Shown here in pieces: positions 998 to 2,105 of a stretch of 7,189 bases of DNA (the first letter of the stretch is position 1; every line of letters begins with the position of its first letter). This stretch comes from a virus. Taxonomy: Duplodnaviria; Heunggongvirae; Uroviricota; Caudoviricetes. The stretch lies in the IMG/VR virus record IMGVR_UViG_2713896777_000006; one strand, given 5' to 3'. A program made the translations under genes and the position numbers. The notes beneath the pieces were generated by a model. The model saw nothing but the letters and a program-made list of their open reading frames with translations, had not been told where the DNA came from and did not search any database.

Positions 998-1564
998 GCA
1001 ACCTCACTTCTGCTGTTTCGCAGTTTTTTAAGTTTCTGTTGATACTCCGCCTTGATGGCCCTGCACTCTTCGACAGTCCAGCGATAGCGGTTATGGTTTG
1101 ATTCGATTTCCTCTACTGCTTCCTGCCCGATGCGGCTAATCAGTTCGACGCGATACGGAACGAGATTTCCGCTTTTGTGCTGGTTGCACACCACGCATTN
1201 NNNNNNNNNNNNNNNNNNNNNNNNNNNNNNNNNNNNNNNNNNNNNNNNNCGTGAGCGTTCCGCACGAGATACATGGTAAGTCGCGGTCTCTTTCTCTGAT
1301 GAAGGCGTTTACGGCTTGTTGGGCTTGTTTAATCCAGTAACTGCGGGGCTTTAAGGCGAGTTTTCGAATCTTCAGTTTATCTTTCTGTTTCTGCTCCTCT
1401 CGTCGTAGTTTCTTCTCTGCTGCTTTTTCCGCTTTTTCGCGTTCTTTACTTCGTCGTTCGAGTGCTATCTTGGTTCCACAAATCTCATTACACCAATATT
1501 GATTTTGATATTTTGGTATAAACCATTCATTGCAACATTTACATTTCCTTCGATAGATTCGCAT
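994..1564 (-). CDS. ninG: NinG/Rap-type recombination endonuclease, interrupted by an assembly gap. The N-terminal ~28 codons are a divergent AT-rich allele.
   Basis: Two ORF-track pieces match lambda NinG. The first is [24 protein letters not shown]...[10 protein letters not shown] (1250-1480). The second is [66 protein letters not shown] (994-1194). The likely start is the ATG at 1564..1562 ([15 protein letters not shown]...), preceded by AAGGAG 5 nt upstream. The track start at 1624 has no such support. The apparent frameshift is caused by the 50-N placeholder. Confidence 0.85.
1200..1249. other. Assembly gap (run of 50 N)
   Basis: N characters are read directly from 1200 through 1249, and the flanks are both inside ninG. 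Confidence 0.99.
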
Positions 1565-2077
1565 AAGTGCTCCTTTCGTTGCCGGAAAAATCACCGTAAT
1601 ACTTATCTCGGGCTTCTTCAGCAACTAGTACCGCTAACTCCAGATCATCAAAGCATCCGAAGTGTTTACTCTTGCCATGGAATCCTAGCCTAACATTCCA
1701 TTTTTTCTGTCGTTTGTGCCAAGTAACCCCTCTGCAACCTGATTTGCTATTCTTTCGGATCCTTATATTTCTTGAATTTTCTATTGGCAGGCATTCTCTT
1801 AAATTTTCTGGCCTATTGTCGGTCCTAATTCCATTAACGTGGTCAATTTGACCAGCAGGCCAACGATTATGAGTTATGTAAAAAACTAAGACGTGAGTTT
1901 TATATCTACGCCCATCTATCATGATCATTGAATAACCGTTGGAATCAAAAGTTCCAGCAACACTATTTAATGCTATCCTTCCCTGAGTGGGAACTTTCCA
2001 TCTAAATACCCCGGTAGATTTATCGAAACTTAGTAACTCAAATATCCTTTTAACAGTTAAATCTTCTCTTTTACGGT
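1481..2077 (-). mobile_element. Putative free-standing homing-endonuclease cassette replacing ninG codons ~10-31
   Basis: The sequence matches my memory of lambda ninG for ATGGCTAAACCAGCGCGAAGACGATGTAA (2105..2077). It then switches abruptly to AT-rich DNA encoding the HNH-AP2 protein plus a divergent ninG 5' end. Lambda-like sequence resumes at TGTGGAACCAAGATAGCACTCGAACG (from ~1480 downward). Boundaries are approximate. Confidence 0.6.
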
Positions 2078-2105
2078 TACATCGTCTTCGCGCTGGTTTA
2101 GCCAT
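1539..2105 (-). CDS. HNH (HNH_3-type) homing endonuclease with a C-terminal AP2 DNA-binding domain, 188 aa from M28 of the track ORF
   Basis: The HNH motif is [43 protein letters not shown]. The AP2-like domain is [52 protein letters not shown]. The start is placed at the ATG 2105..2103, which has GGAGGAAGAAGGCG directly upstream. The track start at 2186 lacks an SD and overlaps the ninF-like ORF. Confidence 0.85.

Follow-up and report, generated by a model that had tools for sequence, protein, structure and literature searches.

The 7,189-nucleotide stretch of tailed-phage DNA deposited as IMG/VR record IMGVR_UViG_2713896777_000006, whose full length is referred to as the window, carries on its minus strand a gene order of the early-right type of phage lambda. 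This order consists of replication gene P, ren, ninB, a Dam-type methylase gene and ninE, followed by a 2.8-kb island of low GC content, an open reading frame (ORF) for an HNH endonuclease, the recombination gene ninG (also termed rap) and the gene of the NinI phosphatase. Homology to lambda detected by blastn extends over positions 1-988, 994-1199, 1250-1480, 2077-2118 and 4899-5119, and two stretches of the window are foreign to lambda, the island at about 2119-4898 and a segment at 1481-2076, to which we refer as the cassette and which is the main subject of this study. The cassette resides within the 5' coding region of ninG, where the nuclease has captured the start of the resident gene, with ninG being preserved as an intact chimaera and the nuclease motif being equally intact. 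We consider it probable that this arrangement constitutes a free-standing homing endonuclease gene of the HNH_3-AP2 type in a lambda-type phage, which was acquired from a donor phage and has subsequently been spread by the action of its own nuclease.

Anatomy of the cassette

On the upstream side of the insert, a short segment of the resident phage is retained (Table 1). Megablast matches to lambda, HK544 and related phages begin at 2118-2122 and the region 2077-2118 is 95% identical to lambda over 42 nt (blastn, E = 7e-13), with no difference in the 29 nt that begin with the ATG and end with TGTAA. In lambda, NinF terminates with the sequence HEEEDDG* and its stop codon overlaps the start of ninG. 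Since the insert is joined in frame after codon 9 of ninG, the nuclease is translated from the ribosome site and the ATG of the resident gene. The protein begins with MAKPARRRC, residues 1-9 being contributed by ninG, and continues with NRKRED. Related nucleases start 1-8 residues ahead of a conserved motif (L..LL.YD..TG.F.W), which in the cassette protein begins at residue 16, and its residues 1-15 find no counterpart in these relatives. Between the junction and this motif there is no ATG, GTG or TTG codon in frame, and the nuclease would thus be made only from the captured ninG ATG, or from start codons further upstream, which are found in the island context alone. A native basic N-terminus, suggested by a gene of Escherichia phage vB_Ec_DUEC01 that aligns at residue 2, was rejected as a tblastn extension upstream of the annotated start of that gene.

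The 64 nt of lambda ninG that were replaced by the cassette have a GC content of 0.516, which is considerably higher than that of the DNA standing in their place, and the latter shows no megablast match outside cassette-bearing records. The last 26 nt of the nuclease ORF overlap the replacement ninG start, and past the right junction the window is 99.1% identical to lambda. The nuclease terminates with the TAA of ATGTAA at 1544-1539, a sequence that can be compared with positions 2077-2081 at the left join. In the frame of the replacement ninG, the same positions read (AA)A TGT AA(A) and thus contain Cys-Lys codons homologous to TGT AA at the left join, so that the points at which the nuclease ORF enters and exits ninG coincide in gene coordinates. 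An imperfect tandem duplication of 20 nt (AGACGATGTAACCGTAAAAG / AGAAGATTTAACTGTTAAAAG; 2047-2087), with 80% matches and a score just above threshold, extends across the left junction and could either be a microhomology trace of the original join or reflect chance.

The location of an insert inside a coding region would also be compatible with a self-splicing intron or an intein in ninG, and some intron ORFs do continue in frame with the upstream exon. We nevertheless regard these possibilities, together with the view that the interrupted form is ancestral and was lost in lambda (see below), as scarcely credible. No Rfam family was detected anywhere in the cassette at E-values up to 1, and excision of the 596 nt would delete the Cys-rich segment and cause a frameshift leading to a stop (...CGA TGT AAT GTG GAA CCA AGA TAG). 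A group I intron and an intein were thus both rejected as candidates, the latter also because the nuclease ORF ends in a stop codon and the insert includes a ribosome site as well as a homologous start of ninG.

The chimaeric ninG gene

The replacement N-terminus retains the positions of Cys, Trp-Phe and Trp-Cys found in the NinG proteins of lambda, Proteus phage vB_BPM-V3 and Edwardsiella phage Edno5. The properties of the full-length protein are best followed in the prophage L003 of E. coli O26:H11 strain 11368, which is 99.97% identical to positions 1250-7189 of the window and which contains 82 nt of ninG in place of the 50 N at 1200-1249, a run that causes ORF finders to split the gene of the window into two pieces. 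The complete chimaeric NinG of L003 comprises 200 amino acids and matches positions 5-192 of the 193 positions of the Pfam family NinG (PF05766) with E = 1.9e-83, compared to E = 1.2e-92 for lambda NinG. This match already starts at residue 4 of the replacement N-terminus, and Cys8, Cys11, Cys24 and Cys28 align with cysteines in the lambda, Proteus and Edwardsiella phage proteins. For annotation, the arrangement accounts for the odd N-terminus of these NinG proteins and for the presence of NinG residues at the start of the nuclease ORF.

Much of this anatomy had been anticipated in an earlier note on the window. Its statement that MAKPARRRC is the exact N-terminus of lambda NinG agrees with the identity of the 29 nt from the ATG, although the lambda annotation contains one extra Met ahead, and the described lambda ribosome-binding context is preserved in the overlap of the ninF stop with ninG, whereas ninF itself was destroyed by the island. 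The proposed switch to AT-rich DNA behind the captured codons, the HNH_3 and the putative AP2 domain, the second, divergent ninG start with its own AAGGAG and its return to lambda-like sequence, the takeover of the resident start by the nuclease and the integrity of ninG by means of an alternative Cys-rich segment were all recovered in our analysis. The alignment with lambda ninG that had been proposed there maps both junctions, and the AT-rich ninG allele is found in phages only in conjunction with the cassette.

Table 1. Coordinates of the cassette, of the genes in its direct vicinity and of the adjacent island in the window.
Feature	Position	Strand	Remarks
Lambda-type segment kept upstream of insert	2077..2122	-	last codons of ninF, ribosome site, ninG ATG, codons 1-9 plus 2 nt (MAKPARRRC)
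ninG ribosome site GGAGGAAG	within 2077..2122	-	
Captured ninG ATG	2105-2103	-	
ninF stop TAA	2100-2098	-	overlaps ninG codons 2-3
Cassette-specific foreign DNA	1481..2076	-	596 nt, GC 0.376; stands in for 64 nt of lambda-type ninG (codons 10-32)
HNH_3-AP2 endonuclease ORF	1539..2105	-	188 aa plus stop; same 567-nt CDS in RefSeq
Shine-Dalgarno AAGGAG for replacement ninG start	1575-1570	-	5 nt upstream of ATG at 1564; read from sequence
Replacement ninG 5' end	1481..1564	-	28 codons, GC 0.286, about 56% nt identity to lambda segment replaced
Right junction TGTGGAACCAAG	1480-1469	-	lambda-type ninG resumes, codon 33
Whole chimaeric ninG (rap)	994..1564	-	interrupted by 50 N at 1200-1249
2.8-kb island inside ninF	2119-4898		GC about 0.24-0.45

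Properties of the encoded nuclease

The part of the protein that is shared with its relatives (residues about 16-188) contains an N-terminal region resembling I-HmuI, an HNH motif with the residues D88, H89, N101 and N110, and a predicted C-terminal AP2 domain. The protein matches Pfam HNH_3 (PF13392) at residues 68-107 with 42.7 bits (cut-off 24.8) and the HNH endonuclease family phrog_99 with E = 1.4e-71. In an alignment of the nuclease with 14 relatives, D88, H89, N101, L102, R103 and N110 are invariant and N113 is nearly so. A model obtained with AF2 on this 15-sequence alignment shows a mean pLDDT of 87.8, and its best match in the PDB identified by Foldseek is I-HmuI (1u3e), with a probability of 1.00 but with E = 0.012 and a TM score of 0.37-0.40 over 109 columns. 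The putative AP2 part superimposes on the plant AP2 domain of AtERF1 (1gcc) with an rmsd of 1.3 Å over 51 columns and a probability of 1.00, and it also matches WRI1 and TEM1. The same domain is assigned as PF00847 in precomputed annotations of the relatives P0006, P0012, P0013 and P0015, and a sequence search of the PDB with the nuclease returned a marginal AP2 match only. HNH-AP2 proteins are a recognised family of homing endonucleases (PMC10448857, citing Magnani et al., 2004). The closest relatives to bear an annotation share 40-44% identity with the cassette nuclease and are listed as free-standing HNH homing endonucleases in Guernseyvirinae and T5-like phages. No match to NCBIfam was found for either the nuclease or NinG.

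Nearly all copies of the gene have retained their catalytic residues, with rare single copies carrying N101S or P83T. Its variable sites are divided into 11 synonymous and 11 non-synonymous positions, the frequent ones being mostly synonymous and rare singletons affecting invariant residues, a pattern that weakly indicates constraint, accompanied by decay in occasional copies. In one protein (P0003, 104 amino acids), only the AP2 half of the nuclease is kept. The ratio of non-synonymous to synonymous changes of about 1:1, with its hint of some constraint, would favour the idea of a domesticated nuclease that is kept for a function in the phage or its host, be it the exclusion of competing lambdoid phages, DNA-binding regulation by the AP2 domain or a joint activity with NinG. 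In further favour of such a role, translational coupling is predicted to allow its expression as part of the early nin operon, the co-option of domains derived from homing endonuclease genes is known (PMC10448857), and a single marginal match in PADLOC relates the protein to the HNH part of ZorE (E = 0.007). However, this match is limited to the 24-residue HNH core, the partner genes of the defence system are absent and 22 single-nucleotide polymorphisms are too few to demonstrate selection. Since marker exclusion by a homing endonuclease would furthermore be mechanistically the same as homing, we judge domestication to be very improbable.

Distribution and genomic contexts

Of 5426 complete E. 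coli genomes, 538 contain the nuclease core, which occupies 564 places with up to three per genome, all being at least 99% identical. The same set of genomes contains about 1935 places with a lambda-type ninG, most of them without the cassette. Among matching phage records, the cassette was found in four out of 324, with carriers including the Shiga toxin (Stx) phages AU6Stx1 and SH2026Stx1, both of the Stx1 type, and it is also present in Salmonella Infantis and Rubislaw and in 57 prophage contigs of IMG/VR. In E. coli, the serogroups with the cassette include O157, O26, O111, O103 and O145, and most copies belong to few serogroups of enterohaemorrhagic E. coli (EHEC). Because most ninG copies and nearly all matching phage records lack the cassette, which is also far younger than its flanks, we do not regard it as ancestral. 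This argues against an alternative raised in the earlier note, in which the same arrangement would be the original state in most lambdoid phages.

Three contexts are found to the left of the cassette. These are the island type, which is encountered in 246 genomes, a derivative in O157:H7, where homology stops at about a hexamer repeat and which is flanked by insertion sequence (IS) elements, and an intact, polymorphic ninF. The latter results in the clean order ninE-ninF-HNH-ninG-ninH, as seen in E. coli PEC422 and Salmonella Infantis. The contexts on the right vary in the presence or absence of ninH and in the identity of the Q gene. Remnants of IS30 and IS1203 are located just upstream in the O157:H7 locus of strain FRIK2069 (L007). 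In the decayed locus L027, ninG is lost past the junction, and in L015 unrelated sequence is found within ninG.

The ninF-ninG junction has also received a second nuclease gene. In E. coli 14EC007 (L006, 4440-4990), a different HNH_3 protein of 168 amino acids with an AP2-like tail, which is 37% identical to the cassette nuclease, is encoded inside ninF between positions 1456 and 1461 of lambda (L001), about 50 nt ahead of the start of ninG, with the ninG cassette following it. A query that covers this gene and extends 85 nt into the ninG cassette had a coverage of at least 80% in 44 complete E. coli genomes, which provides only a rough bound on the frequency of the gene. In another locus (L150), the second gene is present where the ninG cassette is absent, and an IS3 element interrupts it. 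It is evident from this gene that the junction has been repeatedly invaded, which fits selfish nucleases better than chance mosaicism. RefSeq lists the second nuclease gene as a partial pseudogene, although its ORF reads through, and the truncated ninF continues for 23 codons into the insert. A mirror-image reading of this insert, with a spare 3' end of ninF supplied upstream, was rejected, as the 23 codons overlap the start of that nuclease in another frame and may be read-through.

Sequence diversity and movement of the cassette

Both boundaries of the cassette are precisely conserved. The left junction is identical in all 63 fetched sequences that carry it, the window included, and the right junction in the 62 that are readable, with L068 ending before this position, while 81 loci contain cassette-free lambda-type alleles at the same site. 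Nucleotide diversity amounts to 0.0042 in the nuclease-coding part of the cassette and to 0.0016 in its replacement ninG 5' end. By comparison, successive segments of 100 nt in the adjoining ninG give values of 0.012-0.062, and a value of 0.024 is obtained for the 46 lambda-type nucleotides upstream. Variable sites start 3 nt ahead of the ATG on the left and 6 nt past the junction on the right. Cassettes that are 99.3-100% identical are embedded in loci whose ninG shares 89.5-99.4% identity, including loci with only 89.5-96% identity in the ninG 3' parts, and between loci with a near-identical cassette, ninF regions differ by up to 19% and ninG by up to 10.5%. The 57 cassette loci fall into 35 ninG haplotypes, several of which are identical to or 1-3 nt apart from cassette-free alleles and further removed from other cassette alleles, and the haplotypes that directly touch the cassette are the common cassette-free ones. 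The near-identity of the cassette on diverged flanks implies that it is young and that it has moved between backgrounds. Our comparison thus documents a recent horizontal spread onto many flank backgrounds in two genera, which may or may not have been driven by the nuclease.

Movement of this kind might equally be ascribed to a passive mosaic module, which would have been acquired in a single illegitimate event and then distributed by RecA or Red recombination and by the clonal expansion of EHEC, with the nuclease being inactive or irrelevant to its spread. Lambdoid nin regions are highly mosaic and the cassette is found between many left and right contexts, most copies are confined to few serogroups, cassette-free ninG copies persist in cassette genomes, the adjacent nuclease-free island is equally conserved, and truncated or IS-disrupted copies exist (P0003; L027), all of which favour passive transfer. 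Against this account speak the catalytic residues that are maintained in nearly all copies, a domain architecture equivalent to known homing endonucleases, boundaries that are located inside a gene instead of at gene borders and a variation of flanks that begins within 3-6 nt of both cassette edges. An independent HNH-AP2 invasion at an adjacent position and the presence of the cassette in two genera also speak against it, and we consider a passive module unlikely.

Proposed origin and mode of spread

In the proposed origin of the homing cassette, the donor would have been an unsampled AT-rich phage, with the nuclease gene located directly ahead of the ninG of that phage. A lambda-type phage that had suffered a break in its ninG 5' end, or close to it, may have been repaired from this donor, with the right crossover placed within a conserved coding stretch at ninG codon 33 and an illegitimate left join that would by chance have been in frame. 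The replacement 5' end would thus correspond to the donor's own ninG start, inherited together with the nuclease gene as a co-converted flank. For its subsequent spread, the nuclease is presumed to nick or cut the cassette-free ninG of lambda- and P22-like phages upon co-infection or co-induction, and repair would copy the cassette into the broken allele, guided by homology in ninG on the right and, on the left, in ninF together with the 29 nt at the start of ninG. As the cassette allele lacks the replaced 64 nt, its carrier would presumably be immune through its divergent 5' end. The target of cleavage could also lie outside of the uninterrupted ninG 5' end, because free-standing homing endonucleases often cut far from their own gene, in many cases hundreds of bases from the insertion site (PMC2988022). 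The earlier note had already considered the pattern to be that expected from a homing invasion with co-conversion of flanking sequence, and this view is retained with respect to a mobile cassette that is polymorphic at one exact site on diverged flanks, whereas no donor was found for the co-transferred 5' end.

Several observations weigh against this proposal. Cleavage by the nuclease and its biased inheritance are both hypothetical. The AP2 domain scores 22.2 bits in Pfam and thus remains under the cut-off of 33.3, and all E-values obtained with Foldseek are at least 0.012, none reaching 0.001. Cassette-free lambda-type copies of ninG are found in the same genomes as the cassette. The 2.8-kb island, which is without a nuclease, is also nearly invariant, and low diversity is for that reason not diagnostic of homing. 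Ordinary homologous exchange between lambdoid prophages could equally generate the observed pattern, because a unique insert cannot import variation. A near-isogenic pair with and without the cassette that would expose a conversion tract was not found, the best of 57 x 80 loci being about 98.7% identical. When the locus L008 was used as query after removal of its cassette in silico, all relatives above 99% were cassette-bearing and the best cassette-free match was 97.5% identical.

The donor was not found either. A word-indexed comparison of the nuclease with 5.8 billion proteins returned a cluster at 99% and then relatives of at most 47% identity, with neither donor nor intermediate among them. 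With the 38-residue replacement N-terminus as query, tblastn retrieved among phages only the two cassette phages, followed by lambda-type matches at 62-65%, and a 40-residue N-terminal query against the protein collection recovered only E. coli fragments of the same allele. A scan of species-representative genomes for the donor identified only a distant match in Planctomycetota. The replacement 5' end was not found without the nuclease gene in 1095 spread E. coli records, a sample in which a class of fewer than about 18 records could escape. The scar that would be left by a loss of the nuclease, a cassette-less allele with the replacement 5' end, was a candidate rejected on the same sample.

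As a more tentative extension, which we regard as possible but rather doubtful, an active nuclease would cut the cassette-free ninG of co-resident phages, including Stx phages, upon induction of polylysogenic EHEC strains or co-infection by lambdoid phages. The ninF-ninG junction would in this case act as a nuclease-driven recombination hotspot that aids the mosaicism of Stx phages, and the second, unrelated HNH-AP2 gene in ninF, 50 nt away, would identify it as an entry site shared by rival selfish nucleases of temperate phages.

Neighbouring genes and the ninF island

In lambda and in several cassette-bearing loci, ninH is located between ninG and the gene of the NinI phosphatase. In the window, ninH is absent (988-997) and the phosphatase gene directly follows ninG. 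Upstream of the cassette, ninF was destroyed by the island, with about 20 nt of its 3' end left ahead of the ninG ATG and a dead 5' remnant at about 4899-4936, whose start is altered from GTG to GTA and whose codon 4 is a stop. The island carries one large ORF on the opposite strand (2587-4440, plus strand), with 617 amino acids from the first ATG and an annotated length of 590. The encoded protein has no match in Pfam, NCBIfam or PADLOC, and its sole match is phrog_9230, labelled 'unknown function'. In E. coli genomes taken as a spread sample, every island was accompanied by the ninG cassette, while cassettes were also found without the island. The hexamer repeat AAATAG/GAAATA (2300-2352; 8.8 copies, 97% matches) is placed between the island ORF and the cassette, and differences in match length among genomes suggest that its copy number is variable.

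Significance and relation to known systems

Homing endonucleases have been studied mostly in lytic T4-like phages. Among temperate lambdoid prophages of pathogenic E. coli, the ninG cassette offers a clear and very common case, which is found in about one complete genome in ten. It illustrates that a selfish gene can insert into a coding sequence without cost to the gene it enters, by capturing its start and bringing a substitute 5' end. If the enzyme is active, it would drive gene conversion from within, among prophages residing in the same cell, and provide a natural homing system based on lambda, which itself carries the presumed target. Our search of the literature found no description of the ninG cassette, and databases label its product as 'HNH endonuclease' only.

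The closest parallels in organisation are found in the MobE/mob genes and in the intronless homing of Seg enzymes in T-even phages (PMC2988022; mobE, PMC2790892). As in the cassette, an HNH nuclease gene that is outside of any intron or intein is placed next to or inside a conserved phage gene. The mob systems are similarly polymorphic between related phages, their flanking donor sequence is co-inherited and the divergence of the flanks is thought to protect the carrier. In contrast to the T-even systems, the ninG cassette resides in temperate lambdoid and P22-like phages, contains a predicted AP2 instead of a zinc-finger domain, is fused to the first nine codons of its host gene and is known here from its sequence. 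With respect to protein architecture, the cassette nuclease shares its N-terminal HNH and its predicted C-terminal AP2 domain with the 'IPA-HNH' genes of phage ICP1, which are located at boundaries of genetic exchange between phages (PMC10448857). The HNH_3 profile, which the cassette nuclease matches directly, does not recognise the ICP1 genes because of their divergence, and the identity of the cassette nuclease to any sampled relative does not exceed 47%. I-HmuI (1u3e), by comparison, is intron-encoded and carries a different C-terminal domain.

Two further cases resemble the cassette in their relation to the host gene. In Aeromonas phage Aeh1, mobE splits nrdA and (Friedrich et al., 2007, cited in PMC2988022; PMC3045599) is likewise a free-standing HNH gene inside a coding region whose host function is kept. 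There, two polypeptides reassemble, whereas in ninG nine codons are cut off and the gene is completed by a substitute 5' end brought by the element. In gene 31 of the P22-like Salmonella phage epsilon34 (PMC2629481), a putative homing endonuclease of the HNH type is joined in frame to an eaE-like N-terminus, which belongs to a resident early gene. This case, which is known from annotation only, concerns another operon, another host gene and another HNH lineage, with no replacement 5' end being described. In-frame HNH fusions and homing endonucleases that split genes have thus already been described, and it is the capture of a start combined with the supply of a replacement 5' end that is the sole unusual trait of the ninG cassette.

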